42,314 nt of DNA, from positions 1 to 42,314 of IMG/VR virus record IMGVR_UViG_3300032327_000597; one strand, given 5' to 3'. Below the pieces are notes generated by a model. It saw only the letters and a program-made list of their open reading frames with translations, was not told the origin of the DNA and ran no database searches. The translations under genes were made by a program, and so were the position numbers. This DNA comes from a virus (Duplodnaviria > Caudoviricetes). This document shows, piece by piece, positions 26,434 through 42,314 of the stretch. The stretch's first letter is position 1; the number at the start of each line of letters is the position of its first letter.

Positions 26434-26489
26434 AAAAGGTCTTTCTGTGTGTTGTTTAATAATACTCTTATTATACAGAAAAAACCAGA

Positions 26490-27898: not shown

Positions 27899-27962
27899 GG
27901 TATTTCTCCAGTGATCTTACTTACTCTATTTACGCTAGACTCTATTACAATTTTATATATGC

Positions 27963-28256
27963 TTAACGACCACGCCCTGCTGAGCGTGTAGCGGGCTTTT
28001 TAACCAAGACCTGCGGTTTTTTAGCCTGTTGAACCTGGGCTGTTTTAGCACCCGGAACCTTGGGAGTTGCAGCAACTTTTTGTGCGGCCGCAATAAAGGG
28101 GTTTTTGCTTGTTTTTTTAGCTTCTTCTGCCATGACTTTTCTCGCTAATTTCTTTGCTTCTAACCTGGCCAGCAGTGCTAACAGTTCATCACGGGTCAGC
28201 ATTTGCCCCCAGGTTGCGACCTTTTTAGGTTCTTCTCGTTGTTTTCTTGTTGCCAT
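27963..28256 (-). CDS. Small Lys/Ala-rich basic protein
   Basis: 97 aa ending RSAGRGR. Confidence 0.6.
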   Translation of the reverse strand: MATRKQREEPKKVATWGQMLTRDELLALLARLEAKKLARKVMAEEAKKTSKNPFIAAAQKVAATPKVPGAKTAQVQQAKKPQVLVKKPATRSAGRGR

Positions 28257-28275
28257 TACTACCTTATTATAATAC

Positions 28276-28385
28276 TGGTGCTGGTTACCGTGTCCAGCGA
28301 AGGCTTATGGCTCCTTCGGCATATGACTTCAGTCTGTTGCCCTCACACTGATCGACTCTAGGAGTCAGGCTGCGGAGTTACCTAT
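28276..28385 (-). ncRNA. Candidate structured small RNA ending in ACCA
   Basis: Four short hairpins; the last (GCTGG/CCAGC) is followed by ACCA. Lies directly 3' of tRNA-Leu. Confidence 0.5.
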
Positions 28386-28386
28386 T

Positions 28387-28471
28387 TGGTGGGAATGGTC
28401 GGACTCGAACCGACACGTCTTGCGACGCCAGAACCTAAATCTGGTGCGGCTGCCAATTACGCCACATTCCC
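28387..28471 (-). tRNA. tRNA-Leu(TAG)
   Basis: Cloverleaf, CCAGA-TTTAGGT-TCTGG anticodon arm, long variable arm, CCA encoded. Confidence 0.95.
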
Positions 28472-28555
28472 AATTAAATCTAAGAACCCTACACCAAAAA
28501 AATACCGCTCTTTGAATTCTGGATGAGGAATTCTAATAACCTTGTACTCTTTATA

Positions 28556-28717
28556 TTATCTTACAAATGCTTGAAAATAATACGTTGTTGGAACTGTGAG
28601 ATACTCACGTATAATACTAACTCCACCCTGCGGTTGCCAACCATCTGCTAACAAGTTGGATACTAACTTGCAAAACTCATCGTGTGTTGCGTTAACAACT
28701 TTATATTCAGTTATCAT
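28556..28717 (-). CDS. Small protein, DUF1737-like (53 aa)
   Basis: Hand-translated MITEYKVV...LLADGWQPQGGVS...YFQAFVR. Confidence 0.65.
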   Translation of the reverse strand: MITEYKVVNATHDEFCKLVSNLLADGWQPQGGVSIIREYLTVPTTYYFQAFVR

Positions 28718-28727
28718 AATATTTTTG

Positions 28728-28798
28728 TGCCTTGTGAGAGAATCGAACTCCCGTAACAGGATTACAAATCCAGCGTAATACCTCTATACGAACAAGGC
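28728..28798 (-). tRNA. tRNA-Thr(TGT)
   Basis: Cloverleaf with loop TTTGTAA and one anticodon-stem mismatch; CCA not encoded. Confidence 0.88.
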
Positions 28799-28820
28799 TT
28801 AAAACTTTACTGCGAAACTT

Positions 28821-28923
28821 TTACGGCTGGGAGGACTCGAACCTCCAAATGCGTTGACTAAGTCGTTGCACCGTCCTAGACCCGGGTATGGGTCAGAGCT
28901 CTGCCATTTGCTCACAGCCGTAA
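28821..28923 (-). ncRNA. tRNA-like RNA without a canonical anticodon loop
   Basis: Acceptor ACGGCTG/CAGCCGT, D arm and GGAGG-TTCGAGT-CCTCC T arm. The central region has a 6-nt-loop hairpin plus an extra hairpin. Own promoter at 28929-28957. Confidence 0.7.
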
Positions 28924-28965
28924 GTATAATTATACACATTCGTCGACTGTAGAGCAAGAGCTGAT

Positions 28966-29214
28966 TTAACCACCCAGTGTTTGACTCTTTGTATCCATTT
29001 TGAGTATATAAGCACCAGCGTCAATTTCACCATTTTGGATCTCTAAAAGCGCATCGATTGTTGTTTGATGTTTTCCATGACGATGCTGTTTCTTAAGCTC
29101 ACGCAGGCGTTCTGCAGCAACCAGCACCATGTCGTAGCGTAGGTTATCTACGTTGCGAACGCATTTTTCGAGGTCCAGTTGCGGGTGGCGGCTGTCAATC
29201 TTTTTCTTAATCAT
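28966..29214 (-). CDS. rpoZ: RNA polymerase omega subunit homolog
   Basis: RYDMVLVAAERLREL and TTIDALLEIQNGEI align by eye with omega RFDLVLVAARRARQM and TTVIALREIEEGLI. Promoter TTGACG-N17-TATAAT at 29247-29275. Confidence 0.75.
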   Translation of the reverse strand: MIKKKIDSRHPQLDLEKCVRNVDNLRYDMVLVAAERLRELKKQHRHGKHQTTIDALLEIQNGEIDAGAYILKMDTKSQTLGG

Positions 29215-29258
29215 ATCTACCTTTAGTTGTACTGCGTTGATGTTTTATTATACAGAGA

Positions 29259-29708
29259 TTATTTGGTAACGTCAACCACTTGATATTCGTAATTGATTGT
29301 GTCTTCATTTTCACGGAAGGTAACAGCACCATTCTTATGATGGAAACGGCGTGCCATTTCTGTTTTTGGACTCAGAGTCACAAAGCGAGTGACGTTGGGA
29401 AATTGACGTTTGATCTCATCTACAGTTTCTATCAGCAGTTCTTTGCCAGCACCTGGAGCATACGACCAAATGGTGTAGAAAATTGCCGTATTGGGCATGA
29501 GTGCGTCTTGGGCTAGTTCAGCTACTGACGCAGGAACATGATCGCAAAGACTAACACATACCATGGCTTTTGGATCCTCGCCCTCAACTATGCTTGAGAT
29601 AAAACGATTTTCGCTAACACGGAACTCAGCAGGAATCTCAGGACGAACTGGATCATCCTTGAGAAACTTGATAAGTGGACTGGCCAAATCTGTGATAAAT
29701 GTTAGCAT
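29259..29708 (-). CDS. Hypothetical protein, GNAT-like C-terminus
   Basis: IFYTIWSY..GAG...VTLSP...A.RFH.KNG; preceded by TAAATA-N5-ATG. Confidence 0.7.
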   Translation of the reverse strand: MLTFITDLASPLIKFLKDDPVRPEIPAEFRVSENRFISSIVEGEDPKAMVCVSLCDHVPASVAELAQDALMPNTAIFYTIWSYAPGAGKELLIETVDEIKRQFPNVTRFVTLSPKTEMARRFHHKNGAVTFRENEDTINYEYQVVDVTK

Positions 29709-29729
29709 ATAATTATTTACCTTTCTTGT

Positions 29730-29960
29730 CTATTCTGGAGTGGCCTCGGCGACAACTTCTTCAACAACTGGAGCCTTGTAGCCAGGACGACTTTTTAACA
29801 CAGCAATCCTACGTTGTATCTTTGCCGCATTCTTTTTGCGAGCGCCGCCTAGCATTTTTTCCAACTGAGCAATGTTTAGTGGGCCTAGTCTTTCCTTGCC
29901 ATTCTTGGTGCGCATTGGATCTGCTTGACGAGTTTTTTGACCTGTTTTATTGCTTGCCAT
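29730..29960 (-). CDS. Small basic hypothetical protein
   Basis: 76 aa; AAGGA RBS. Confidence 0.7.
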   Translation of the reverse strand: MASNKTGQKTRQADPMRTKNGKERLGPLNIAQLEKMLGGARKKNAAKIQRRIAVLKSRPGYKAPVVEEVVAEATPE

Positions 29961-29977
29961 TTTTGTGTCCTTTATTG

Positions 29978-30051
29978 TGGAGCGGGATAAGAGAATCGAA
30001 CTCTTGACTGGAGATTGGAAATCTCTAATTTTGCCATTAAACTAATCCCGC
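29978..30051 (-). tRNA. tRNA-Gly(TCC)
   Basis: GCG...CGCTCCA ends, anticodon loop TTTCCAA. Confidence 0.93.
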
Positions 30052-30060
30052 ATGTTGTTA

Positions 30061-30089
30061 ATTATACAGCCTAAGATACAAACTGTCAA
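30061..30089 (-). promoter_or_regulatory. Internal sigma70 promoter upstream of tRNA-Gly
   Basis: TTGACA-N17-TATAAT. Confidence 0.85.
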
Positions 30090-30094
30090 CTATT

Positions 30095-30171
30095 TGGAGC
30101 ACAGGGTGGGACTCGAACCCACGGCTGGACGGCTTTGCAGGCCGCTACATTGGCCACTCTGTCACCTGTGC
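30095..30171 (-). tRNA. tRNA-Cys(GCA)
   Basis: Loop CTGCAAA, U73 discriminator, CCA. Confidence 0.93.
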
Positions 30172-30177
30172 AGTGTT

Positions 30178-30269
30178 TGGCAGAGACGGTGAGATTCGAA
30201 CTCACGGTACTGATTACTCAATACGACAGGTTAGCAACCTGCTGCCTTCGGCCACTCAGCCACGTCTCT
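30178..30269 (-). tRNA. tRNA-Ser(GCT)
   Basis: Loop TTGCTAA, long variable arm, GCCA end. Confidence 0.95.
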
Positions 30270-30302
30270 ATTACTGCTGTAAAACCATTATAACATCTAT
30301 TT

Positions 30303-30392
30303 TGGCGGAAAGTGTGAGATTCGAACTCACGGAGCCCTTTCGAACTCGCTAGTTTTCAAGACTAGATCCTTAAACCACTCGGACAACTTTCC
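30303..30392 (-). tRNA. tRNA-Ser(TGA)
   Basis: Loop CTTGAAA, long variable arm, GCCA end. Confidence 0.95.
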
Positions 30393-30399
30393 ATGTTAG

Positions 30400-30497
30400 T
30401 GTTAGTTATTGTTGGGTCGGGAAACTAACAAACCCCGTGAGCACAGCCCATCCTGTTTTCGTGTCAGCGGATGCGGAATATGGTTACAGGTCCGCTC
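30400..30497 (-). ncRNA. Candidate multi-pseudoknot RNA
   Basis: AGCGGA/TCCGCT stem crossed by CCTGT/ACAGG; CGGG/CCCG stem crossed by TGTTAGTT/AACTAACA. Confidence 0.5.
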
Positions 30498-30516
30498 GAT
30501 TACTTATTACAATATT

Positions 30517-30592
30517 TGGGGTGCTGGATGGGATTCGAACCCACGACAACCGGAATCACAATCCGGGATTCTACCGCTGAACTACCAACACC
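30517..30592 (-). tRNA. tRNA-His(GTG)
   Basis: Loop TTGTGAT, G-1:C73 pair, CCA. Confidence 0.95.
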
Positions 30593-30594
30593 AT

Positions 30595-30630
30595 TGGTCC
30601 GCCCAGAAGGAATCGAACCTCCATCAGGCA
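30595..30630 (-). pseudogene. 3' half of an interrupted tRNA (probably Arg)
   Basis: TGCC-TGAT-GGAGG-TTCGATT-CCTTC-TGGGCGG-ACCA; the acceptor strand pairs with the 5' half at 31174-31201. Confidence 0.88.
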
Positions 30631-30641
30631 TAAATAATTAT

Positions 30642-31106
30642 ATGCTCAAATGTATCCATTGCCAAACTGAATTAAAAGGAAAATATACCTTAAAATTCTG
30701 TTCTCGTTCTTGTTCAGCATCTCATAATAATAAAACTAAAGTTAAGCATGGTAAGTATGCTGAAAAAGAATGCGCTGTTTGTAAAACATTAACAAAGACT
30801 GCCACATATTGTAGTAAAACATGTAGCGGATTAGCTCGTCGAAAATACCTAACTGAAGAAGAAAAAACAGATGCTCGTCGTAGAGGGTGGCGTGAGCATA
30901 ATGCTAATTATAGAGCACAGCTATTAAATCAAACACCAGTTGATGCAGATCGAAATAATATTCGAATCTTTTATGATAACTGCCCGACTGGATATGAAGT
31001 AGATCATATTATACCTATCAGTAAGGGAGGATTACATACCCTATCTAATTTGCAGTATCTTACTGTTACTGAAAATCGTAGAAAAAGTAATAAACTAGTG
31101 GTCTGA
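30642..31106 (+). CDS. HNH homing-type endonuclease with N-terminal Cys zinc ribbons (154 aa)
   Basis: EVDHIIPISKGGLHTLSNLQYLTVTENRRKSN; CIHC, FCSRSC, CAVC and YCSKTC motifs; start at TAAATA-N5-ATG 30642. Confidence 0.9.
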   Translation: MLKCIHCQTELKGKYTLKFCSRSCSASHNNKTKVKHGKYAEKECAVCKTLTKTATYCSKTCSGLARRKYLTEEEKTDARRRGWREHNANYRAQLLNQTPVDADRNNIRIFYDNCPTGYEVDHIIPISKGGLHTLSNLQYLTVTENRRKSNKLVV

Positions 31107-31173
31107 CTGGAGAGGATCGAACTCCCATCAAAAGGGTAGAAACCTTCTGTACTATCCATTGTACTACAGTCAG
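31099..31173 (-). tRNA. tRNA-Arg(TCT)
   Basis: CTGACTG/CAGTCAG acceptor, loop TTTCTAC, A20 in the D loop, ACCA end overlapping the HNH stop codon. Confidence 0.9.
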
Positions 31174-31201
31174 CCTGTACTATCCATTGTACTACGGGCG
31201 G
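31174..31201 (-). pseudogene. 5' half of the interrupted tRNA
   Basis: CCGCCCG-TA-GTACAATGGATAGTAC-AGG; 21 bp (31175-31195) are identical to the D-arm region of tRNA-Arg(TCT) at 31147-31167. Confidence 0.88.
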
Positions 31202-31222
31202 ATTTGTTTGTTAAATAGCATT

Positions 31223-31888
31223 ATGCCAAAAAAATTACTATTGCTTGTTGCGTTACTTCTTATATCTTTGTCTGCTCGTGCCGTACAAGATGGTGTATAC
31301 GGAATGATAGCCTATGGTGATGTTATAGGACCTAGTTCAATTTCCGTTGCCAACGGTGCATTTAATGGTGCACCATATGCTAATGGCAACGCCAACAATA
31401 ACTTTAATCTAGCAAATGATGGACGTTTTTCCGTTAATGGGTCTGTAGGGTATATTAAAAGCAACATCGGCATTGAGTTCAAATATATTAATCTAGGGTC
31501 ACAACATCAAACTGGTGTCAACGGTAACAGCCTACAAGCAGGTGAAACTGGAACATATGGTGGACACTATTATGGGATCAATGGACAGTACTTTATGCCC
31601 ATTATGGACAACAAGCACGATATATTCTTTTCGCTGGGCGCCGGTCAGATGCACACTACCTTTGCCACAGTTAATTCTCAAGCATTCACAAGTTCTGCAC
31701 CACAAAGTGCTACACAAAATGAGTGGGCCGCATTGCTGGGTGTTGGAGCTAGATTTAGTATCACCGATCACTTCGGCATCAATCTCGAAGCTGATCGTAT
31801 CACTCCGGTGACACACGGACTTCTTAACTCTGGTATCTATAACAACGCCTACACTATACTTTCTGTAGGTTTCGTTGTTAGTTACTAA
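31223..31888 (+). CDS. Outer-membrane beta-barrel protein (OmpA-TM/Ail/Lom-like)
   Basis: Signal peptide MPKKLLLLVALLLISLSARA, amphipathic strands, GVGARF and terminal SVGFVVSY; preceded by TAAATA-N5-ATG. Confidence 0.8.
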   Translation: MPKKLLLLVALLLISLSARAVQDGVYGMIAYGDVIGPSSISVANGAFNGAPYANGNANNNFNLANDGRFSVNGSVGYIKSNIGIEFKYINLGSQHQTGVNGNSLQAGETGTYGGHYYGINGQYFMPIMDNKHDIFFSLGAGQMHTTFATVNSQAFTSSAPQSATQNEWAALLGVGARFSITDHFGINLEADRITPVTHGLLNSGIYNNAYTILSVGFVVSY

Positions 31889-31890
31889 TT

Positions 31891-31964
31891 TGGCTCCGGG
31901 CCAGGGAATTGAACCCCGTCAAGCAGGTTTGGAGTCTGCGGTGCTACCGTAACACTTGCCCGGA
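31891..31964 (-). tRNA. tRNA-Trp(CCA)
   Basis: Loop CTCCAAA, GCCA end. Confidence 0.9.
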
Positions 31965-31970
31965 ATTGTT

Positions 31971-32045
31971 TGGTAGTAGCGGTGAGACTCGAACCAACAC
32001 CTTGCTCCGTATGAAGGAGGTGCACGACCATTATGCTACATTACC
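31971..32045 (-). tRNA. tRNA with CAT anticodon (Met/fMet/Ile2 not resolved)
   Basis: Loop TTCATAC; mismatches in acceptor, anticodon and T stems; ACCA end. Confidence 0.75.
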
Positions 32046-32354
32046 TTATGCTATAAACCAATCATCCTCATCTTTGGTAACGATTGATTCATTTCCGTCG
32101 TACTCATCTATTCTAAATGCAGTTCCCTCGGGAACCCAAGCAACGGTTAAATCATTGTAGTTGCTGACATAAATGTCTGGAAACTTCAATCCTATATAAG
32201 AACGAAGGGCATCATCATCTTCATCCTCTAGATATTTTACAATAGTAGGATCAAATAGTATTTCTGGATATTCCTTGTTCCAAGTGTACCAGCCTGCTCC
32301 AAATCCAGGAGAGTAGACCACAGCAACCTTACCATCACGCACGACTTTATTCAT
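32046..32354 (-). CDS. Hypothetical phage protein (102 aa)
   Basis: MNKVVRDGKVAVVYSPGFGAGW...FRIDEYDGNE; AGGAG RBS. Confidence 0.85.
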   Translation of the reverse strand: MNKVVRDGKVAVVYSPGFGAGWYTWNKEYPEILFDPTIVKYLEDEDDDALRSYIGLKFPDIYVSNYNDLTVAWVPEGTAFRIDEYDGNESIVTKDEDDWFIA

Positions 32355-32382
32355 CTTGCTCTCCTTTACAGTTGAAAATATT

Positions 32383-32528
32383 CGGCTTTCGCCTTCCACA
32401 ACTATACTCCTCAACTTCCCATCCATCGGCACCTGTGGTCAGACTTGCGATGTTTGTACGGCCCCGCATTCTAGTGCGAGTGATCCTTGAGGTAGACTGC
32501 TAGGCCTAAACCCGCCTAGCATCGGGCC
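32383..32528 (-). ncRNA. Candidate multi-helix structured RNA
   Basis: GCTAGGC/GCCTAGC, CCTCAA/TTGAGG, CTCGCA/TGCGGG, CATCG/CGATG and GGC-GAAA-GCC helices. Confidence 0.5.
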
Positions 32529-32630
32529 TTTGTTGTTTTACCCATTAAACTACCGTAGACTGCTTTTCCATAATACTACGTAACTATGGTCCACTTGATC
32601 TACAGGCAGGCTTCGAACCTGCAAAACAAA
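32529..32630 (-). ncRNA. Circularly permuted tRNA-like RNA (YrlA/Y-RNA-like topology)
   Basis: Order is T arm, acceptor 3' strand CTGTAGA, 39-nt linker, acceptor 5' strand TCTACGG, D arm; closed by TTTGTT/AACAAA. Confidence 0.7.
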
Positions 32631-32632
32631 TA

Positions 32633-32746
32633 TGGTGTTTGTGTTGGCGCTTGAATCCACGGTAGCCCTACTCTTCATGGCACCTCTTGCGTCGACCGGT
32701 ATCATAGCAAGTTCAGTGTTGTTCCATTGTAGCTACTACACAAACA
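32633..32746 (-). ncRNA. Candidate structured RNA with terminal stem and CCA end
   Basis: TGTTTGTGT/ACACAAACA terminal helix plus CCA; internal GTAGC/GCTAC and ATGATACC/GGTGCCAT pairings. Confidence 0.6.
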
Positions 32747-32752
32747 TTGATT

Positions 32753-32851
32753 TGGCTCCCATACAGGATTCGAACCTGTGGTGCATACTCTCTCCCGGCG
32801 CCGGGAGGTTGGAGTTTGGGCTACACCAGCTGCCCTCTCATGCGATGGGGG
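32753..32851 (-). ncRNA. tRNA-like RNA with anticodon arm replaced by a long hairpin
   Basis: Perfect T arm ACAGG-TTCGAAT-CCTGT, short acceptor CCCAT/ATGGG, GCCA end; GGTGTA/TGCACC, ACTC/GAGT and CTCCCGG/CCGGGAG helices. Confidence 0.65.
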
Positions 32852-32857
32852 TGCTCT

Positions 32858-32890
32858 TGGCGGATCATTTAACTTTCGAATCGCTCTAAA
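32858..32890 (-). pseudogene. Possible degraded tRNA 3' remnant (Asp-like end)
   Basis: TTCGAAA loop followed by ...TGATCCGCCA; the T stem pairs poorly. Confidence 0.35.
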
Positions 32891-32907
32891 CAATGATAAA
32901 TATTAGT

Positions 32908-33678
32908 ATGAAACAAAAATATTTTATCCAGGCTCGATGTAAAAATTGTAATAACCCTTATTCTAAACAGCAGGATTCTAATAGAGCCCACTGTAGTGAT
33001 CAGTGTCGCAAAGAATTTCGCAACGCTAACAAAAAAATTGTTGAGACAAAAGAATGTCTCGAATGTAATATTGCCCATAATAAACCAGGCATATTTTGTT
33101 CCTCAAGCTGTTCTGCAAAATATTCTAATGCTAGAAAAGACTATAGTAAAATAAAAACTGGACCTGTTAAAGGAACTTTACCTGCTAATATATTTTGTAA
33201 ATTGCCACACTCGATAGTAGAATTTTGCACTTGCGAAATATGTAATACTACATTTACTCGAAACTCAATACACAAAGGATCTAAACGGGTATGTAGAGAT
33301 GAGACCTGTATTAAAAAATTTAAACGCAAAGTAAGAGTTGGTAAATGTGGAGGATTTCGTGCTAATTCTACTAGGGTTACTAGGACAATCTACAAAGGCC
33401 AGCAGATGGATTCTGGTGCAGAACTAGCATTTGCAAAATTACTAGATACTAATAATATAGATTGGGACAAAAATTCTACTATCTGGTTTGAGTATTTGCC
33501 TGGCAAAAAATACTATCCTGATTTTTTCTTACCAAAATACAATGCCTGGATAGAAATAAAAGGCAAATACTATGTTAGAGAAGACGACGAACTTCGTTGG
33601 AAGTCTGTTCCTAATCTTGAAGTTATATGGTCAAATAATATTACTTTGCCAAAAGTATATGGCGAGGATGAAGGGTAA
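32908..33678 (+). CDS. PD-(D/E)XK endonuclease with N-terminal Cys zinc ribbons (homing-type, 256 aa)
   Basis: DSGAE...YYPDFFLPKYNAWIEIKG; CKNC, HCSDQC, CLEC and FCSSSC motifs; start at TAAATA-N5-ATG 32908. Confidence 0.85.
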   Translation: MKQKYFIQARCKNCNNPYSKQQDSNRAHCSDQCRKEFRNANKKIVETKECLECNIAHNKPGIFCSSSCSAKYSNARKDYSKIKTGPVKGTLPANIFCKLPHSIVEFCTCEICNTTFTRNSIHKGSKRVCRDETCIKKFKRKVRVGKCGGFRANSTRVTRTIYKGQQMDSGAELAFAKLLDTNNIDWDKNSTIWFEYLPGKKYYPDFFLPKYNAWIEIKGKYYVREDDELRWKSVPNLEVIWSNNITLPKVYGEDEG

Positions 33679-33739
33679 CGATCCCTCCTGAATATCCGGC
33701 GTGACAGGCCGGCGACCACTCCGTGCAGTCCCCATCCCC
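33660..33739 (-). tRNA. tRNA-Asp(GTC) with atypical T loop
   Basis: CCGGC-CTGTCAC-GCCGG anticodon arm, G73, CCA; T loop ATCGTTA; 3' 19 nt overlap the endonuclease ORF. Confidence 0.85.
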
Positions 33740-33824
33740 TAAATTTTGAGACTTACTCCTTCGATCACTTCTCACCGGCTTCAAGGCGCAGGGCGAGTTA
33801 GTCAAATCCATTACGGGCGAATAC

Positions 33825-33898
33825 TGGTTGCTGGGATAGGACTTGCACCTATACCTTTGGCTTATGAGACCAATGTGCGGCTTTTACACTACCCTGCT
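33825..33898 (-). tRNA. tRNA with CAT anticodon (initiator-like 1:72 mismatch)
   Basis: Loop CTCATAA; A1:A72 and A4:A69 mismatches; T loop TGCAAGT; ACCA end. Confidence 0.75.
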
Positions 33899-33906
33899 AT
33901 TGTTAA

Positions 33907-33982
33907 TGGTGGAGGTTAGGAGATTCGAACTCCTCGCCTATTGCTTGCAAAGCAATTGCTCTACCAAATGAGCTAAACCCCC
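33907..33982 (-). tRNA. tRNA-Ala(TGC)
   Basis: G3:U70 pair, loop TTTGCAA, ACCA end. Confidence 0.95.
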
Positions 33983-33998
33983 ATTGTAATACATTATG

Positions 33999-34071
33999 CT
34001 CCCCGGGTACGACTTGAACGTACGACCAAAAGATTAACAGTCTTCTACTCTACCGACTGAGCTACCGGGGA
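33999..34071 (-). tRNA. tRNA-Asn(GTT)
   Basis: Loop CTGTTAA, G73; CCA not encoded. Confidence 0.93.
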
Positions 34072-34095
34072 GCATAATGCACTACCTAAAACTTA

Positions 34096-34310
34096 CCATT
34101 AGTTGTATTGTCATGTTATGGACTAGGCCCAACCCTAGTCGTTTGCTTTTACCGTCCCATGCTTACTTTACAGGATGATCAGTCCCATCTCGTCATAGTC
34201 CAACTCGCGTTAGTTAGTCTACAGTTATACTGTAGCATTTGCCGGCGCTCCCTAACGTTGAAAGTGCATTATCCCATACAGGGATTTTTCCATAACAACA
34301 CAACTAATGG
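34096..34310 (-). ncRNA. Candidate ~215-nt structured RNA closed by a long terminal helix
   Basis: 11-bp and 9-bp inverted repeats join the ends; internal hairpins at 34121-34140, 34219-34235 and 34271-34285. Confidence 0.6.
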
Positions 34311-34334
34311 CGTCCCTAACCGATAGACGATGGC
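34308..34334 (-). pseudogene. Internally deleted tRNA remnant (Glu/Asp-like)
   Basis: GCCATCGTCTATCGGTTAGGGACGCCA is a D-arm sequence fused to a GGACGCCA 3' end. Confidence 0.45.
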
Positions 34335-34397
34335 TGTATGACTCTACCTTTGTGGCCCTTGCCAGTGCTATATTATTAGTGGTTACTATAAAATCTA

Positions 34398-34532
34398 TTA
34401 TAGATTAAACACATGAACAATACATTTATATACTAGAAATGCTAAAAATGCATATGCTACTAGTTTCATAATAAATCTTACCTTTTTCTCACCAGGTGTT
34501 ATTATTTCATTCTCATAATCGTTTAGTGCCAT
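34398..34532 (-). CDS. Small membrane protein (44 aa)
   Basis: MALNDYENEIITPGEKK followed by a TM helix; AGGAG RBS. Confidence 0.7.
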   Translation of the reverse strand: MALNDYENEIITPGEKKVRFIMKLVAYAFLAFLVYKCIVHVFNL

Positions 34533-34564
34533 TTTAATACTCCTTTTTAATGTTATGCTGCTAG

Positions 34565-34641
34565 TGGTACACTGTACGGGATTCGAACCCGTGAATGTCA
34601 CCGTGAAAGGGTGATGACTTAAGCCACTTGTCGAACAGTGT
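34565..34641 (-). tRNA. tRNA-Glu(TTC)
   Basis: Loop CTTTCAC, ACCA end. Confidence 0.93.
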
Positions 34642-34650
34642 ATAAAACTT

Positions 34651-34735
34651 TGGTGGAGCATCCTGGGATCGAACCAGGCATGTCTAAAGACGGCGGATTT
34701 ACAGTCCACTGCATCACCATTGATGCTTCTGCTCC
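34651..34735 (-). tRNA. tRNA-Tyr(GTA)
   Basis: Loop CTGTAAA, long variable arm, ACCA end. Confidence 0.95.
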
Positions 34736-34971
34736 ATTGTAAAATTGTAACACTCTCTCGGCTATACCGGTTCCGGCCCGTTCAGGGGGCTATGAGAGAG
34801 TGTAATAAAGCATACTGCTTTCATCCTCTTAGACGCTGGATCAACGCACCACAATACGCTTTATTACGCTAGATTTTTTTACACCACACAAGGTGCTCCA
34901 TCCCTAGGTCCGCCCGTTTGTGCTTGTTTTCAGTGTAGCACAGGACCTCGTTTCCTGCAACCACTCCCTGC

Positions 34972-35142
34972 TTATCTTGCTGTATGAAACGCCGGATTCA
35001 CTCTACGTGATTCCATGGCTATCACAGCACGATCAATCTTGCTTTGAAACAACTGCTGTTTCTGTTCTTCACTTAGAGTGAATCCAGGAATTTCTGTTGC
35101 TTGTCTAACAATGCGTTCATTCAATTTTGTATAATCAATCAT
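34972..35142 (-). CDS. Small hypothetical protein (56 aa), first gene after the attenuator
   Basis: Hand-translated MIDYTKLNERIVRQATEIPGFTLSEEQKQQLFQSKI...; AAGGAG RBS. Confidence 0.65.
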   Translation of the reverse strand: MIDYTKLNERIVRQATEIPGFTLSEEQKQQLFQSKIDRAVIAMESRRVNPAFHTAR

Positions 35143-35157
35143 GTTTTCACTCCTTAT

Positions 35158-35196
35158 AAAAACAAAAAACCCTAGGTTTTTAATCTAGGGCTTTGT
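35158..35196 (-). terminator. Intrinsic terminator (attenuator) at the head of the tRNA island
   Basis: CCCTAG/CTAGGG hairpin followed by TTTTTTGTTTTT; its 5' arm overlaps an alternative 13-bp helix. Confidence 0.8.
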
Positions 35197-35219
35197 TAAA
35201 CTATAACTATTTTATATAA

Positions 35220-35348
35220 TTACGTTAACAAAACCCTCATCTCCGTCGGCTCATTACCATCACAATTTGAACTAATCACTGACCAATAGGTGGACATCAC
35301 CTGTCTGGCTATGGATAGTAATTCCAAGTGTAATGATGTTTGTAGCAT
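35220..35348 (-). CDS. Putative attenuator leader peptide (42 aa)
   Basis: MLQTSLHLELLSIARQVMSTYWSVISSNCDGNEPTEMRVLLT; its last codons form the 5' arm of the antiterminator. Confidence 0.65.
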   Translation of the reverse strand: MLQTSLHLELLSIARQVMSTYWSVISSNCDGNEPTEMRVLLT

Positions 35349-35375
35349 TTGTTTCTTAATTTCCTTAATAATTAT

Positions 35376-35404
35376 ATTATACGTTTATTTATCCCAACTG
35401 TCAA
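35376..35404 (-). promoter_or_regulatory. Main promoter of the tRNA island (sigma70 with nested TAAATA)
   Basis: TTGACA-gttgggataaataaacg-TATAAT. Confidence 0.88.
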
Positions 35405-35519
35405 TGGATTTTTGATCTTTTGGTAAATTTTGTTCTAATTTGCATACCGTACAGAACCATCTGTTGTTTCCCCACAACGGCATTAGTTCACCACCACACG
35501 CACATTTATATTGTTTCAT
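35385..35519 (-). CDS. Small zinc-ribbon protein (44 aa)
   Basis: Hand-translated MKQYKCACGGELMPLWGNNRWFCTVCKLEQ... Confidence 0.55.
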   Translation of the reverse strand: MKQYKCACGGELMPLWGNNRWFCTVCKLEQNLPKDQKSIDSWDK

Positions 35520-35604
35520 TATAATAGTACCTTTGTATAAATTCGTCAATCAAAAAATCCAACCGTAACTTAGACTCTGCTAAATTTCAGTTGGATTTTA
35601 GGTT

Positions 35605-36321
35605 TTATTTCTTTTTGTTAATCACAGCAACAAGGTATCCGTTGTGCCAATCGCTATGCTGAAGTGATATTTGAGGATGAGTACCATCACCAGTGGTTAT
35701 AATTTCAATACTGGCAACAACTTCAAGTCCTAATTCTGCAATAGCCTGTTCTGTACCGGCTTTAACTGCAACGCCGTTGTAGTCATCAACGATTAAAACA
35801 TATTGATCATCAAGAGCAGGCTGAGCAATTACAACTCCGTCGTATTGATCTTCTTGACTGTGAGGGCCATCAAACATGTAAACATTAAATTTACCAATGT
35901 CTGCATAATTGACTTTCCTAAAGTCACTGTCGATATAATTGAAATCGGCAGTATCGCCACTGGCGGCACGGAGATTCTGTTCAAACTCGCCTCTTACGCT
36001 TTCTGATGTGGCACCCCAAAGGAAATCACTCCAGTTGTCAATACACAAGGCCTTACATTTATTTCCAAATACTGCTGAGGCGGCTGTGGAGCCTTTCCAA
36101 CTGCCTACTTCTAAATATCTAGCGTTGTCTATGGAGCCCATTAGATTATTGATAAAATATCTGTATTTCTTTCCACTCATTCCATCCATGTAGCGAATAG
36201 AGTCTGGTATTTTAAAATTCATAGCAATAGAATCAAACCAAGCATTTTGTACTGCGGATGCCATTGGACTAGACCAATCACCTGTAAACTTTGTCGATGT
36301 TTCTTCGTGTAAACTTATCAT
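35605..36321 (-). CDS. Class I SAM methyltransferase (Methyltransf_24-like)
   Basis: YLEVGSWKGST, FDGPH and IVDD motifs. Confidence 0.85.
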   Translation of the reverse strand: MISLHEETSTKFTGDWSSPMASAVQNAWFDSIAMNFKIPDSIRYMDGMSGKKYRYFINNLMGSIDNARYLEVGSWKGSTAASAVFGNKCKALCIDNWSDFLWGATSESVRGEFEQNLRAASGDTADFNYIDSDFRKVNYADIGKFNVYMFDGPHSQEDQYDGVVIAQPALDDQYVLIVDDYNGVAVKAGTEQAIAELGLEVVASIEIITTGDGTHPQISLQHSDWHNGYLVAVINKKK

Positions 36322-36337
36322 TATTTTTCCTTTAATT

Positions 36338-37120
36338 TTAAAAATATCTAATGTTCAATCGTCCGGGGTAGTTAATTTCCAAACGTTCAAACGATTCATT
36401 TTTATGTGTTTCTACCCACATAGTTTTCCCCAGTGCTAAAGCTAGAGCACAGGGTGAGCTCATACTGCATACAAATAATTCGCTTCCTTGAATTACACGA
36501 GCCAATTCCATAAAGTCTGGTGTCCTATAATGCGGTACACGAATTTTAAAAATTTCCTCAAACCAGGCATGTTCGCTTTCTAAACCAACATACACTGCCT
36601 GATCTGCAAGACCTCTATTTACTAAATCTAGCCATACAGGACTTTGTCTTTCATTGCCATCTTGATATTGCGGTGCGCGAAATATAACAATAGGCCTGCC
36701 AGGAAATTTACGAACTTCTCGACATTCCATATACGGTTCTACTTGTAATTCTCTATAGTGCTTGTCCATGTCGATACCCTGTGCAAGAGCATGTTGATTA
36801 GGAAAATTGCGTGGAAAGCGGTTTGTTTCTAAATGACTTGCTGCGTTTTCTAATTCATAATCGATATGTTCACCCTTCCATGGTTTAAAGTCAGTAATGT
36901 ACGGTTGGTGCAACATAAACTCACGCATAATTTCATAGTCATGTTCTGTCATCCTTCCACTATGTCTATGACCCGGTGCAATTCTCCATCCTAATTTTTC
37001 CTTCATCATATTTTCTAGATTATGCAATCGTAGATAAAATTCGCCACCACCTAAAATTTTCACAGCTACACAACTACTAAAGGTGTCTCCTGCTGTTCCT
37101 GAATGGCTGAATGTTGTCAT
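36338..37120 (-). CDS. GT-B/GT9-like glycosyltransferase
   Basis: HSGTAGD N-terminus and ELARVIQGSELFVCSMSSP..LA; paralog of 40108-40878. Confidence 0.7.
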   Translation of the reverse strand: MTTFSHSGTAGDTFSSCVAVKILGGGEFYLRLHNLENMMKEKLGWRIAPGHRHSGRMTEHDYEIMREFMLHQPYITDFKPWKGEHIDYELENAASHLETNRFPRNFPNQHALAQGIDMDKHYRELQVEPYMECREVRKFPGRPIVIFRAPQYQDGNERQSPVWLDLVNRGLADQAVYVGLESEHAWFEEIFKIRVPHYRTPDFMELARVIQGSELFVCSMSSPCALALALGKTMWVETHKNESFERLEINYPGRLNIRYF

Positions 37121-37830
37121 ACTTTCCTTGCGTAAAATACCAACTTACCTGGGATAGGTTGTGTTACTTTTGCTACCGTAAACCCGTTTTTGTTTAAAAT
37201 GTCTGCAAATTGCTCTTCGGTAAAGAACCACAAATGTTCAGTATGCTTCCAGTGATGCTGACCCTGTGGACTAAAGTAATCAGGTAAGTCTATAATAGCT
37301 TGACCGTCTAATTTTAAAATATCCCAAACTAATGCCAACGCACTATTAACATCTATCATATGTTCTATACTATCGTGCATGGTGACAAAGTTAAAATGGC
37401 CTGGATTGAAATGAGCAGTTTCTAAAGTTCCTCTTACTGTAACAGAATTATCACCAACATTTTCGCCAGGCTCTAAACCTAAACATCGAATGTTCCTGTC
37501 AATTGCTCTATGAACAAATGCACTATTACTACTACCGATATCTAAACCTATAGACTCTTCCGGCAAATTATAAGTGTCTAATCTTAAATCTGCTACTCGG
37601 CAATCGTGCTCATATCGTTGTTCATAGGTCATTGTTCCTCTGTTTTTTTGATAATCGAGGTGATAGTCTGTTTTGTAAAAATTAAAATATTTTTCAGGAG
37701 TCCAACCTTCTAAACATTGATGAATCACCCCACACTTGTCACATCTGACTACAGATAACATGTTAACAAATAATTTTGAAAACTCTGTTTTGTTACCGCA
37801 GGTACATTTTTTAATTAAATTATTTTCCAA
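37117..37830 (-). CDS. Class I SAM methyltransferase with N-terminal zinc ribbon
   Basis: LDIGSSN, GLEP, HDSIEH and LKLDG motifs. Confidence 0.85.
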   Translation of the reverse strand: MENNLIKKCTCGNKTEFSKLFVNMLSVVRCDKCGVIHQCLEGWTPEKYFNFYKTDYHLDYQKNRGTMTYEQRYEHDCRVADLRLDTYNLPEESIGLDIGSSNSAFVHRAIDRNIRCLGLEPGENVGDNSVTVRGTLETAHFNPGHFNFVTMHDSIEHMIDVNSALALVWDILKLDGQAIIDLPDYFSPQGQHHWKHTEHLWFFTEEQFADILNKNGFTVAKVTQPIPGKLVFYARKV

Positions 37831-37832
37831 GG

Positions 37833-38672
37833 TTAATCTCTATATAAATCAGTTACATGAAATGCTGCATTTGGTATAATCATGTGTTGATACTTGTCTA
37901 GATTTTGTGTAATACAATCTGGAAAGTACTCATCTACTTTTACATACTCAAATCGTTCTGGATGACTCGGCCCATGATATCCGCATTTATTTTGAATAAA
38001 CCAATCAATGTTGTGTTTAGTAATCATCTCGAATATATCAATTTCGGTGTGTGCAAAATTTTGTATCTTAGTAATAGCATGATTATTATCTCCAAAATAT
38101 GTAAAATGCCAACCTGCATGATCAACGGATACTAAATCTTCAGGCTTAGAAACCCAAGGGAATGTGTACTCTCGTTCCTGTTGAGGATTCGTATAACAAC
38201 GAGCACGGGTAACCATAATATTAGGTTGCTTGACAATATCGTATATCTTCATATAGTTGATTTTATATTGGAGCATAGGAATAATTAGAATATAACGGCC
38301 CCAATCGTTCTCGTCTTGTTTGATCATTGTGATTGCTTCTGCACGAGGAATTTCGTCTAAGTCACTAGTAATAATAATGTCTTCTACTTTGATGTCTGTC
38401 AACCCCTTGATAAGACTATACCGTTGATATTTTTCTCTTGCCCAGCTATCCTGTGTCTCTGGCATATCGTCAACTATGACACGACGAATTTTACTCAGGT
38501 ATTTGGCAAATCGATCTTTGTTATTTTCAAAAATATATTCTTTAGATTTGCCACTATGGCTTTGATTAGACTCAGCTAAGACAAAGACGTCAACTACATC
38601 CCATAGTTCTTGCAATCTAATTTCTAAAACATCCAATTCATTAAAGAACGGAAAACAATCGTAAACTTTCAT
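37833..38672 (-). CDS. GT17-family glycosyltransferase
   Basis: VYDCFPFFNELDVLEIRL, SDLDEIP, GWHFTY and KIQNFAHTE motifs. Confidence 0.88.
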   Translation of the reverse strand: MKVYDCFPFFNELDVLEIRLQELWDVVDVFVLAESNQSHSGKSKEYIFENNKDRFAKYLSKIRRVIVDDMPETQDSWAREKYQRYSLIKGLTDIKVEDIIITSDLDEIPRAEAITMIKQDENDWGRYILIIPMLQYKINYMKIYDIVKQPNIMVTRARCYTNPQQEREYTFPWVSKPEDLVSVDHAGWHFTYFGDNNHAITKIQNFAHTEIDIFEMITKHNIDWFIQNKCGYHGPSHPERFEYVKVDEYFPDCITQNLDKYQHMIIPNAAFHVTDLYRD

Positions 38673-40108
38673 TGTGAGTCCTGTATATATTGTTGATACT
38701 GTTCTGCTAGTATCACTCGAGATTCGTTAGGTAAGCCTGGCCAATGTATAACAAAGTCGCCCTGCTCCCATTGTCCGCTGTGTCCTAATAAATCTGTGTT
38801 ATCTACATTATATATTCTATAGTCATATGAATTCAAGGCCTTCTGCGGAATCAGTTTGAATAGGTGTTGAAATTTTGGATAAAAGTCTATAACGGCCTGT
38901 TGCTCAAACCATTTGACATCGTTTTTATATTCGGTCTTTTTGCTCAATAAGAATTCCAGCCAGGCACGGGCCTGTGGGCTATTACGTACTATAAAACTAC
39001 CTGTGTTAAGTGCGTTAGTGTCTGTAGGCATAATAACGTGATAGTCGGGGTCAATTAGATCCTCTAGGGCAATGTCGAAGTTGGTAATCATAGCATCATT
39101 GTCTAACCACCATACCCAATCCAAATCTGGATTAGTCTTCATTACATCTAGTATGTGTACGAATTTGTCAAAATGCACTTGTTCAGCACTGAAGTTGTCT
39201 GTTTTGGCAATGGCCAAGTAACCGTGCTTGTTGGCATATTGTTGTTTGTTGGTCCAAGTTAATCGTGCTAGATTTTGATGGGGCTCGTTGAATATGCTGA
39301 CAATAGCAATGTTAGGAGAGATTGATTCGTCCTTCCATAATTTAGGTACACTGTTCCATAATATATCAATATCCACATAGGGATCTTTGCCAGACTCGTC
39401 CATTATGTAAAATGCTAGTCCAGGAATAGGAGAGAATAGCAACACGTCGGGCTTGTTCCATACAAGGTTAATCGACTTGTCTTCAACCCAATCAGTACCC
39501 TTTAATCTAATAATATCTTGAAAGTGGTTACGATACTTGTCATAGACGGCTCGGCTGGTCAAACAGGTATAGGTAGTATGCTTGACTGTTCTATAATGGC
39601 GATGCGGACCTAACAATAGAATACTGTCGTATATCTGACTACGGTATCGCCGAATGTCATCGTGTGGATTGATAGCAACCATCTTCTTAGTGGCAACTTC
39701 AAATTGATCTACAGTATCGATCATATCTTGGATAGCTTTTGGAACGTGTAGGTAATCGTCCTCAATGTGATACCAAAGATCTACTGCGTATGTTTCTACT
39801 AGATCATATACTCGACTCATAGTGTGAGCATTACCTGTACCGTCTTCCACAGGAATAAATTCTGTAGGAAACTTGCAATGAGATAGTATGCGTTTAATGT
39901 CTGCCACTGCTTGGGGTGTGCTGTGATCATCTAATACTGCCAATTGTATGTCGTGATTGACCACTTGATTGATACTGTTAACTAGACTGCTGACACAGGT
40001 ATTGACCAACTCGTGCTTTGGCACTTTGATGTATCGTCCAGCACCTGTGTCATTAACCATGTTAACAGTGGTGCAAGTACGTAATACAATTAATAAATTT
40101 CTTCTCAT
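38669..40108 (-). CDS. Two-domain glycosyltransferase (GT2-like plus GT34-like)
   Basis: N-half LDDHS...IEDDYLH; C-half YANKHGY, WWLDND, LNTGSF, EQ and GDFVIHWPG. Confidence 0.8.
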   Translation of the reverse strand: MRRNLLIVLRTCTTVNMVNDTGAGRYIKVPKHELVNTCVSSLVNSINQVVNHDIQLAVLDDHSTPQAVADIKRILSHCKFPTEFIPVEDGTGNAHTMSRVYDLVETYAVDLWYHIEDDYLHVPKAIQDMIDTVDQFEVATKKMVAINPHDDIRRYRSQIYDSILLLGPHRHYRTVKHTTYTCLTSRAVYDKYRNHFQDIIRLKGTDWVEDKSINLVWNKPDVLLFSPIPGLAFYIMDESGKDPYVDIDILWNSVPKLWKDESISPNIAIVSIFNEPHQNLARLTWTNKQQYANKHGYLAIAKTDNFSAEQVHFDKFVHILDVMKTNPDLDWVWWLDNDAMITNFDIALEDLIDPDYHVIMPTDTNALNTGSFIVRNSPQARAWLEFLLSKKTEYKNDVKWFEQQAVIDFYPKFQHLFKLIPQKALNSYDYRIYNVDNTDLLGHSGQWEQGDFVIHWPGLPNESRVILAEQYQQYIQDSQ

Positions 40109-40878
40109 TAGAAATAATTACCTTTAGGCTGATCTGGAAAGTAGCACTCGTTTCTTTCTAAAGGTAGATCACGACGAGCTTCACACCAGTATTCTTGTCC
40201 TAGTCCTATAGCCATGCTTAGAGCTACACTTTGATTGCCAATAAACATATCAGCACCAGCAATATATTCTGCTAGTTCCAACATAGATGTAGTGGGTTGA
40301 TAAGGAATATCCCAACCGGTAGCTGTTTTGAAAGCCTCGTATTCTTCGGGTAGTCCCAAGAATACAGCAATATCCTGTATGCCTTCACTACTCCACTTGA
40401 TCCATTGTGAGCTAAGTTCGGGTGGCAACCAACGAGAAGTTCTGTTAATTACCACAGTTCTATTGCCGTGACGCTTGGGATTAGGTACTGTAAGCCAAGG
40501 AGTAGTTCTAATTCGTGTCTGTTCTACAGGATCAGTAATATTGTACACTGTTGAGTAGACATCTACATAGTTGCCAGGATGGCCTACAAACGGCGCACGA
40601 AAGTCATCTAGATTATGAGTAATCATTGTGTTCTTGGGATCCATCGGCTCAAATTTACTAATGTATTCTTGCGCCAGCATGAAGGACTCCATAAACTCAA
40701 AATCCTTCATTGTCATACGTCCTTGATGAAAAGGCGAAGGCTTTGAACCGTAATAGCGTTGCCCAATCCAATCAATTTGATTTAGGTGAAGATAGAACTC
40801 GCCACCCCCAAAGTGCTTTACCATGGGCAGGCTGTAGACTAGGTCACCGTGAGTACCTGAGTGTTTAAATCTGTTCAT
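40108..40878 (-). CDS. GT-B/GT9-like glycosyltransferase
   Basis: HSGTHGDL N-terminus and [17 protein letters not shown]...AIGLG. Confidence 0.75.
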
Positions 40879-41820
40879 CGAAGGGAATTCTCAAAATAAC
40901 GAATGGTTCGTTTAAGTCCTTCGTCTAGATCAAATGTAGGCTCCCACCCTAGCAACCGCTTGGCCTGCGTAATGTCTGGCTTGCGTTGACGAGGATCATC
41001 TTGTGGTAAGTCTTGAAATACTATCTTACTAGACGTTTTAGTAAATTCAATTACTTTCTCTGCTAGTTCAATCATGGTAAATTCGCCCGGATTGCCAATA
41101 TTAACAGGCCCGACTATTGAGTCATCACTGGCCATAAGTGCCATCATACCAGCAATATTGTCATCAACATAGCAGAAGCTACGAGTTTGACTGCCGTCAC
41201 CATAGATAGTAATGTCTTCACCCCCGCAACGCCTGTACAATAAAGTTACTGACTACTCTGCCATCATCTGGTGCCATACGGATACCAAATGTATTGAAAA
41301 TACGCATTACTTTAATCTTAACACCATGCTGTCTGTGATAGTCAAAGAACAGGGTTTCCGCGGCTCGCTTGCCTTCATCGTAGCATGAACGAATACCTAT
41401 GGGATTTACATTGCCCCAGTATGTTTCTGGCTGTGGATGAACGGTGGGGTCACCGTAGACTTCGCTTGTGCTGGCCTGTAGAATCTTTGCGCCTGTGCGT
41501 TTGGCAAGTCCCAACATGTTGTAAGCACCTAACACACTGGTCTTTAAAGTTTGAATAGGATCCTGTTGATAGTACTTGGGGCTAGCTGGACAGGCTAGGT
41601 TATAAATTTCATCTACTTCTACATACAGAGGAAAGCAAACATCTTGTCGCATGACTTCAAAATTTGGTTTATTCAAGAGATGCTGTATGTTGTCTTTACT
41701 GCCGGTAAAGTAGTTGTCGACGCACAAGACATGATGTCCTTGTTCGACCAAACGATCACACAGGTGACTACCTAAAAATCCAGCGCCACCTGTTACTAGT
41801 ATTTTTTTGACTTTTTTCAC
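40875..41820 (-). pseudogene. UDP-glucuronate decarboxylase (UXS-type NAD-dependent SDR), frameshifted
   Basis: [22 protein letters not shown] and YDEGK lie in one frame; [15 protein letters not shown]...DDPRQR lies in another. Removing one G from the G5 run (41221-41225) fuses them. Confidence 0.88.
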
Positions 41821-41873
41821 ATTATTATTTAAGTGCATACATTATTGGCACACGCATTTCTTGGCTAATACTA

Positions 41874-42314
41874 TTATTTAGGTAATCTGCCTAGTCTTTC
41901 AATTTCTTCAGCAGTACGTTTACGTACAATAAACTCAATGGCACATTCTGCGATGCTGTGATAGGTTTGATCAAACCGTTGTACATCATACATAAATGCT
42001 TGATTAATCAGTTCGACTTTTAAGATTTCTACTTTGTCTTTGTATTGGTATAATAATTCTAGTAAGTTAATACTTACAGGACTCCAACTTTGATCTTTTG
42101 AAATAGTCCACGATGTTTTGTGATCTGGATTATGATTACTCGGCCATACTCCTTGTTCGTATAGATCCTCATCTGGGATAGTAGTAATAATATGTCCGCC
42201 TGGTTTACAAATACGAATCCAATTGTCAAATGCTTCGTAAGGATCATGTAAGTGTTCTAAGCAATGGCTGCTGTGTACAAAGTCATATGACTCGTCTGTG
42301 GCATTGGCCATTAG
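41874..42314 (-). CDS. Class I SAM methyltransferase (5' end outside window)
   Basis: YDFVHSSHCLEH...RICKPGG motifs. Confidence 0.85.
   Translation of the reverse strand, partial: LMANATDESYDFVHSSHCLEHLHDPYEAFDNWIRICKPGGHIITTIPDEDLYEQGVWPSNHNPDHKTSWTISKDQSWSPVSINLLELLYQYKDKVEILKVELINQAFMYDVQRFDQTYHSIAECAIEFIVRKRTAEEIERLGRLPK

Follow-up and report, generated by a model that had tools for sequence, protein, structure and literature searches.

Amino acid operon attenuators include the trpL, hisL and pheL leaders, the multivalent thrL and ilvGMEDA leaders, and pheM, which precedes pheST. In leaders of the trp/his type, a 1:2 protector hairpin sequesters the antiterminator arm when the leader is not translated. 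The upstream ORF (uORF) of whiB7 has a diverse composition, and its efficient translation leads to termination, while stalling leads to antiterminator formation and readthrough (PMC10274678). Loss of the start codon raises whiB7 expression, and the content of the uORF, which has 19 amino acids in M. smegmatis, sets the shortage that is sensed (PMC10274678).

The reason for phage tRNA genes has been debated for decades between codon compensation and defence evasion (PMC10264068), and phage tRNAs have been proposed to counter host anticodon nucleases (PMC10264068; PMC7824862). The available portions of both papers treat why phages carry tRNAs, not the control of their transcription, and the available text of PMC7824862 uses neither 'attenuat' nor 'leader'. 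The trn operon of Anabaena, a large accessory tRNA array on a megaplasmid, is activated under translational stress (PMC10272220). Unlike the phage leader described here, it is repressed at initiation by TrcR, a ribbon-helix-helix protein, and the available part of its account mentions no leader attenuator (PMC10272220). A search of titles and abstracts, outside which supplementary motif catalogues lie, found no published leader attenuation of phage tRNA genes.

The window, the whole stretch of 42,314 bases that was analysed, was an entire virus record with matches to a head maturation protease, a tail fibre and a baseplate. Relatives carrying the same element were as large as 346–358 kb at 100% estimated completeness, so the record probably represents part of a giant tailed phage. 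Sixteen tRNA genes were arranged on the minus strand from 34735 to 28387; 15 were called by ARAGORN, and tRNA-Tyr by Rfam or at a lowered threshold. The features of the leader and the array were as follows.

35376..35404, minus strand: sigma70-type promoter, 12/12 consensus, 17-nt spacer
35362..35366, minus strand: putative SD-like pentamer, 13 nt ahead of the leader ATG
35220..35348, minus strand: leader ORF, 42 codons and TAA, 18 amino acids (no Phe, no Lys)
35225..35237, minus strand: antiterminator 5' arm, in the final codons of the ORF
35203..35223, minus strand: inner 8-pair antiterminator helix enclosing the stop codon, by prediction only
35187..35199, minus strand: antiterminator 3' arm, overlapping the terminator 5' strand
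35158..35194, minus strand: intrinsic terminator-like hairpin with a 9-nt loop and a U-tract
34972..35142, minus strand: 56-aa ORF with no assigned family, the first gene past the terminator, four relatives
34740..34970, minus strand: structured-RNA-like stretch ahead of the first tRNA, judged by eye
31099..34735, minus strand: first tRNA block (Tyr, Glu, Asn, Ala, Met, Asp, Met, Trp, Arg)
28387..30591, minus strand: later tRNAs (His, Ser, Ser, Cys, Gly, Thr, Leu) with their own consensus promoters

The TTGACA-N17-TATAAT promoter, the 42-codon ORF and the terminator overlapping the antiterminator 3' arm were all found where the original prediction had placed them. Of the 71 promoter-like sites in 26000–42314, three matched 12/12, the leader promoter among them. 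The ORF used 29 different codons, none more than three times, and contained one Ala codon; an in-frame upstream ATT had no support as an alternative start. The antiterminator, announced as a 13-bp helix, had 13 pairs between its arms, 12 of them Watson–Crick and one G–U. The terminator was composed of a 6-bp core (35190–35185 with 35175–35170), extendable to 10 pairs, and a U-tract at 35169–35158. It was missed by the hairpin scanner, which had a loop limit of 8 and listed a plus-strand hairpin instead.

When the leader was folded as free RNA, the antiterminator formed with a pair probability of 0.97–1.0, and when positions 35250–35212 were masked, the terminator formed with a pair probability of 1.0. 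The antiterminator alone gave −19.6 kcal/mol and the extended terminator −12.2 kcal/mol by folding. A ribosome, assumed to cover −15/+11 relative to the A site, was stepped along the ORF. With the modelled ribosome at codons 1–34 the antiterminator stayed (0.94–1.0), and with it at codons 35–43 the terminator formed (0.99–1.0). All 18 amino acids of the leader occurred within codons 1–34, the predicted sensing window. The stability of the whole leader gave a z score of −3.54, and 0 of 200 shuffles were equally stable.

In the folding of this leader, no hairpin trapped the antiterminator arm in the untranslated RNA, and the 1:2 protector hairpin of the trp/his/phe type was absent. Because of this difference, the modelled leader was closer to whiB7 than to the trp/his type, and global translation arrest is also predicted to open the switch. 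The trp/his-type geometry claimed earlier was thus upheld as attenuation, which is supported by ORF and stop conservation, antiterminator covariation and tRNA linkage, and was amended as to the trapping hairpin. An untrapped arm would also suit a generic sensor of translation speed or timing, one that answers antibiotics, ribosome shut-off or uncoupling and whose content follows the array historically; any translation failure is then predicted to give readthrough, and whiB7 likewise answers ribosome-targeting antibiotics (PMC10274678).

The composition of this ORF was ordinary when taken alone. At least 18 amino acids in 42 codons were found in ~30% of random protein segments, 29.2 different codons were expected under synonymous resampling, and the rare codons CTA, ATA, AGA and AGG were not significant, so that none of the three features first described as unusual stood out here. 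Rare-codon sensing at this locus was rejected. The amino acid diversity signal was visible at the family level only.

Several other features were observed around the leader and within the array. On the minus strand at 35385–35549, a 10/12 promoter (at 35549) and an ORF of 44 aa that contains cysteine pointed into the leader, and the end of this ORF overlapped the leader promoter. Further upstream, 35605–42311 (minus strand) held a cluster of methyltransferase, glycosyltransferase (GT17, GT34) and nucleotide-sugar epimerase genes, with the epimerase match split across two neighbouring ORFs; by eye, an inverted repeat and T-run at ~35599–35554 appeared to end this methyltransferase operon. Structured or tRNA-like stretches lay between the tRNA genes on the minus strand (34740–34970, 32520–32830, 28820–28920 and 28270–28380). 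The first had no Rfam match, and a similar stretch followed the leader in two relatives (L005 and L009). The sole match among the inter-tRNA stretches was a weak one to Y RNA-like YrlA at 32527–32632 (E 0.062, 23.7 of 69 bits). Three long antisense ORFs on the plus strand interrupted the array (30471–31106, 31187–31888 and 32893–33678), and the first is an HNH endonuclease, probably mobile. An 82-aa ORF inside the array (28966–29214, minus strand), downstream of an 11/12 promoter at 29275, matched RNA polymerase omega/Rpb6 under the curated cut-off (PF01192, E 3e-5), and a 149-aa ORF (29259–29708, minus strand) matched the C-terminal domain of malonyl-CoA decarboxylase (PF05292, E 7e-8).

The first relatives with the same layout were four loci reached through the 56-aa ORF, and 4/5 matches to a short leader motif. 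The 56-aa ORF had four relatives, every one behind the same leader type, and gave no PHROGs, Pfam or Atlas match. A terminator-only pattern then yielded 119 IMG/VR stretches from 19 of 64 parts, with ~430 estimated overall. These large scans specified the terminator only, and the promoter, ORF, antiterminator, tRNAs and content match lie outside the pattern; 34 early pattern matches additionally demanded Tyr-Trp nucleotides. A leader was called when a promoter scoring at least 9.5 was followed by an ATG ORF of at least 18 codons ending near the terminator, with the stop searched 10–45 nt before it. A promoter and an ATG ORF ending 19–37 nt before the terminator were present at 111 of 126 distinct terminator sites with at least 200 nt upstream, compared with 13.8% in shuffles. 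Once 10 GTDB loci outside the family and all sites with <200 nt upstream had been left out, a promoter and leader were present at 272 of the 303 distinct sites in the larger set, all sharing one terminator type.

Among the 151 non-redundant leaders (<70% identical), the stop codon was located 19–37 nt ahead of the terminator in every one. The ATG lay at most 11 nt from the −10 box in 86, which are probably leaderless; the other 65, this locus among them, had a longer 5' region and often a long SD spacing. In these 65, an SD-like 4-mer was found 11–16 nt before the ATG in 32, 5–8 nt before it in 9 and elsewhere in 3, and was absent in 21. The 13-nt spacing raised as a caveat is therefore real, yet common in the family. 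A tRNA gene lay within 2 kb downstream at 159 of 160 leader sites with enough flank, which bears out the proposed tRNA cargo. Sites with no called leader had a tRNA within 2 kb in 3 of 13 cases, and those three were leaders missed by the filter.

When 34640–35420 was searched by blastn against annotated phages, 37 records were returned, none covering 80%; the listed matches were tRNA-Tyr or weak pieces of 38–62 nt. Over the window, only tRNA reached the Rfam gathering score, with no such match to cis-regulatory families (T-box, riboswitches, leader motifs). The best Rfam match over the leader was the rimP leader, below the gathering score (E 3.8, 20.7 of 47 bits), and 14 related loci matched tRNA and tmRNA families only. 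Among GTDB bacterial genomes, 15 terminator matches were found, five of them with a leader, on MAG contigs. Two of these (L159 and L161), from one Haliscomenobacter MAG, carried a leader and tRNA arrays; this MAG held two T4-type gp23 major capsid genes, and the three other leader MAGs held none. The leader-bearing contigs are probably phage contigs, not a bacterial version; one terminator pattern was searched, and bacterial versions with another terminator loop would escape it.

The same terminator loop also ended a protein gene with no leader, antiterminator or tRNA at 12 loci (L039, L048, L051, L101, L111, L112, L119, L136, L138, L141, L146 and L147). A conserved terminator loop as a regulatory site was rejected as circular, since the loop is the search pattern and also occurs on leaderless terminators. 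Those leaderless terminators preceded a TAAATA/TAAATAC-like motif, which may be a late promoter; 99 of 151 leaders also had the TAAATA hexamer in their promoter region, where a late-promoter role is putative only. A phage-borne permuted tmRNA lay immediately upstream of the leader promoter at two loci (L001:2408–2774 and L002:1183–1545), and that of L001, of betaproteobacterial type, gives a host hint only. A Roizmanbacteria MAG locus (L165, ~2270–2550) showed a promoter, an ORF of 24 codons and a tandem pair of terminators, followed by a 413-aa gene that by its start we take to resemble argininosuccinate synthase; this may be a separate attenuator in a CPR bacterium.

The predicted alternative fold was compared across the family. 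At equilibrium the antiterminator prevailed in 52 of 84 leaders, compared with 0 of 420 shuffles and 0 of 14 leaderless same-loop terminators, and with the ribosome at the stop the terminator prevailed in 72 of 84. Both properties were shared by 40 of 84 leaders and by this locus, and in 32 of 84 the free RNA at equilibrium already favoured the terminator. Co-transcriptional pairing, ahead of a finished terminator, occurred in 150 of 151 leaders, yet also in 253 of 453 shuffles, which makes this a weak measure.

In a structure-anchored count, five positions beside the invariant G-C core alternated between G-C and A-U types and were 81–97% paired, compared with 49–82% when arms were swapped between loci, the count being fitted to the structure. 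An unfitted MAFFT alignment was made of 52 sequences with similar arm spacing, 51 of the 151 and this locus. Of the cells in the eight antiterminator pairs, 84.6% were paired, and two-sided changes numbered 58, compared with 25.0 ± 8.1 in shuffled alignments, a comparison inflated by sequence relatedness; the covariation score was 0.336, compared with at most 0.216 for slid versions. The terminator stem was 100% paired across 51 aligned rows, which was partly forced by the search pattern. After an arm swap with the nearest relative the helix was nearly as stable (−19.0 vs −21.2 kcal/mol), and the own arm was best in 65 of 151. The alignment of relatives thus agreed with the original prediction, with a conserved short ORF ending at an antiterminator arm that covaries. 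The features of a leader-peptide attenuator were found together: a positionally conserved short ORF between promoter and genes, an intrinsic terminator upstream of the genes, as judged by its sequence features, and an exclusive antiterminator, by predicted fold and covariation, with its 5' arm within ribosome reach. A chance arrangement or search artefact is scarcely credible. The loci are related and were gathered with element-derived patterns, including the early ones that required Tyr-Trp nucleotides, but the large scans fixed the terminator only and the other features are independent of the pattern; the conserved layout, folding controls, tRNA linkage and held-out content match described below largely refute this explanation.

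The amino acid content of the leaders was compared with the tRNAs downstream. All 20 amino acids were present in 41 of 84 leaders, compared with 2.2% (at most 8 in 2000 draws) under nulls of pooled composition, real protein segments and alternative frames, and in 86 of the 151 non-redundant leaders (~2% expected). Amino acid types ahead of the masking boundary numbered 2679, compared with 2582 ± 13 in shuffled order. The discovery set comprised 31 loci that had long flanks and 8 or more tRNA types. Of the 29 amino acids that their leaders lacked, 22 were also without a tRNA downstream (5.5 expected). The leader/array match was set as a prediction before new loci were fetched. A downstream tRNA was present for 211 leaders, of which 64 had a visible array end and 53 were non-redundant; 33 loci <70% identical to any discovery leader were held out, some sharing clades with discovery loci. 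Family tRNAs were called by ARAGORN at a 95% threshold, with CAU scored as Met.

In the held-out loci, 53 of 66 amino acids lacking in the leader were also lacking in the array, compared with 32.4 ± 2.9 with both margins fixed (null maximum 43), and 26 of 31 compared with 12.9 when the five most depleted leaders were removed. Over all loci, 74 of 94 leader losses were matched by an array lack, compared with 45.1. With one locus per single-linkage cluster the values were 32.1 vs 18.4 (22 clusters) and 29.1 vs 17.0 (18 clusters), and with 25% clustering (8 clusters) the excess shrank to 17.5 vs 13.2 (median P 0.003, worst 0.067). The match was one-directional, with leaders retaining amino acids that have no array tRNA in 192 of 966 cells; for 20 of the 94 leader losses the corresponding tRNA was present in the array. 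At this locus, Phe and Lys were absent from both leader and array, and the amino acids of the absent Ile, Pro, Gln and Val tRNAs were kept in the leader.

Because leader content tracks block content, the analysis points to feedback on downstream tRNA supply. The earlier proposal that the phage senses general translation failure thus kept its attenuator, while the evidence favours feedback on the downstream tRNA types, not failure alone. The generic sensor of translation speed introduced above, with which the lack of enrichment of exact cognate codons would agree, has no need of all 20 amino acids, nor to lose just the amino acids absent from the block, and is considered unlikely.

Codons exactly matching downstream anticodons were not enriched (483 of 892, with 473 or 533 simulated). 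All 28 leaders whose array has both Ser tRNA boxes used both codon boxes, and distinct codons family-wide numbered 1655, compared with 1563–1575 expected. Sensing appears to operate at the level of the amino acid or codon box, not of the exact anticodon. A match at the amino acid level would also be given by a leader that senses host amino acid starvation, through uncharged tRNA, and not the loss of tRNA molecules. The attenuation mechanism itself cannot distinguish an uncharged tRNA from a missing one as the cause of a stall. The content of the whiB7 uORF decides which starvation induces it (PMC10274678), which lends starvation sensing a precedent. More tRNA would be no cure for a lack of amino acid, however, so that a match to tRNA content would be hard to select, and the use of both Ser boxes and the excess of distinct codons also argue against starvation sensing, which we regard as very improbable.

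At 13 loci, two promoter-leader-terminator units were found, each heading its own tRNA block. In one of them (L373), the first leader had no Cys, His, Ile, Lys, Gln, Trp or Tyr, and none of the corresponding tRNAs was in its block; the second leader had no Ala, Asp, Glu, Leu, Asn or Val and headed a block with tRNAs for Ile, Trp, Cys, Lys, Gln, Met, Arg, His and Phe. The largest exception to the leader/array match (L375) was resolved by split blocks in the same way. In the 11 other split loci, the extra unit preceded an upstream block rich in Glu, Tyr and Asp tRNAs, and in 10 of 11 the main leader lacked at least one of Glu, Tyr and Asp (L238 had no Glu, and L259 no Asp). The match of second leader to block was read from the table by eye. 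Paired leaders over split blocks are a further feature of which a generic speed sensor has no need.

The leader promoter was the only promoter of 11/12 or better for the first nine tRNAs of this locus, with a 10/12 promoter-like site at 31214 ahead of the Arg tRNA in that block. Consensus promoters at 30665, 30089 and 29275 preceded the last 7 of the 16 tRNAs, and for this reason the candidate switch cannot by itself control every gene of the array; its claimed control of the tRNA operon would apply to the first nine genes. Among relatives, a consensus promoter lay between the terminator and the first tRNA in 25 of 98, and a median of 5 tRNAs came ahead of the first internal promoter. Because of the internal promoters here and in those relatives, the switch may boost rather than gate tRNA transcription.

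Such frequent internal promoters would also suit a leader promoter that constitutively makes a terminated small RNA, or a peptide, with a function of its own, the tRNAs then coming mainly from internal promoters and readthrough being leaky or set by a phage antitermination protein. The ORF region folds as a long hairpin, 77 of 84 leaders retain a Trp codon, and the same terminator loop follows protein genes with no leader, all of which this explanation would accommodate. The leader peptides were highly divergent, however, the closest relative of this one scoring 0.33, and the antiterminator covaries and is missing from the leaderless terminators. Trp was lost in 6 leaders, for which four arrays had no tRNA-Trp, one had it only in the second block and one is unexplained. 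A small RNA or peptide with its own job is accordingly judged very improbable.

We consider it probable, from the sequence comparisons and modelled folds, that the element is a whiB7/trp-like ribosome-coupled transcription attenuator acting as a feedback sensor of tRNA supply. The leader would be translated, with translation coupled to transcription. A ribosome at codons 35–43 is predicted by folding to cover the antiterminator 5' arm, so that the terminator forms; with a ribosome held at codons 1–34, or with none, the antiterminator is predicted to form first. The leader would act like a checklist on which every tRNA type supplied downstream has one codon or more, and amino acids with no downstream tRNA would be free to drift out of it under relaxed selection. 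Because the match is one-directional, feedback together with relaxed selection is the simplest account. The natural trigger would be tRNA loss, through host anticodon nucleases or infection-driven tRNA decay, and fresh phage tRNA would complete a negative feedback loop; the switch would also open when translation slows for another reason. Loss of tRNA is a likelier selected signal than starvation because added tRNA cannot remedy a missing amino acid. Work on PARIS and retrons reportedly concerns the same theme of phage tRNAs against host anticodon nucleases. A tRNA-loss trigger fits the proposals that phage tRNAs replace nuclease-cut ones (PMC10264068; PMC7824862). The wider reading, which we favour only narrowly, is that a giant-phage lineage audits the tRNA pool of the infected cell with checklist leaders, one per block, and that replacement tRNAs are transcribed only when host defence or tRNA decay slows those codons.

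When compared with amino acid operon leaders, the phage leaders are alike in that codons would report downstream supply and that antiterminator and terminator are mutually exclusive. They differ in having no run of one codon, with up to 20 amino acids in about one to three copies each, and in a product that is tRNA, not biosynthetic enzymes or a synthetase. At this locus no control-codon run was found among the 18 amino acids, and the cargo (the 56-aa ORF, RNA-like stretches and tRNAs) neither makes nor activates a sensed amino acid. The leader resembles whiB7/wblC of Actinobacteria in its diverse uORF and its logic of ribosome position; the cargo of whiB7/wblC, a bacterial system, is a transcription factor and its uORF is enriched in Ala (PMC10274678). 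The phage leader instead fronts tRNA genes, which its content tracks, and with a virus record, one Ala codon and tRNA cargo it works like whiB7/wblC but is not a member of that group.

A switch that senses tRNA supply, with a content that follows the tRNAs it precedes, would imply that phage tRNA genes are an inducible replacement stock. If true, the tRNA supply would regulate itself, and the leaders would provide a sequence-readable map of the tRNAs that each phage expects to lose. Attenuation would then reach tRNA genes and phage counter-defence, and the leaders could be put to use as compact anticodon-nuclease biosensors. The purpose of phage tRNAs also becomes testable, as this 250-nt element should ignore the loss of tRNA-Phe or tRNA-Lys and answer the loss of specific others.
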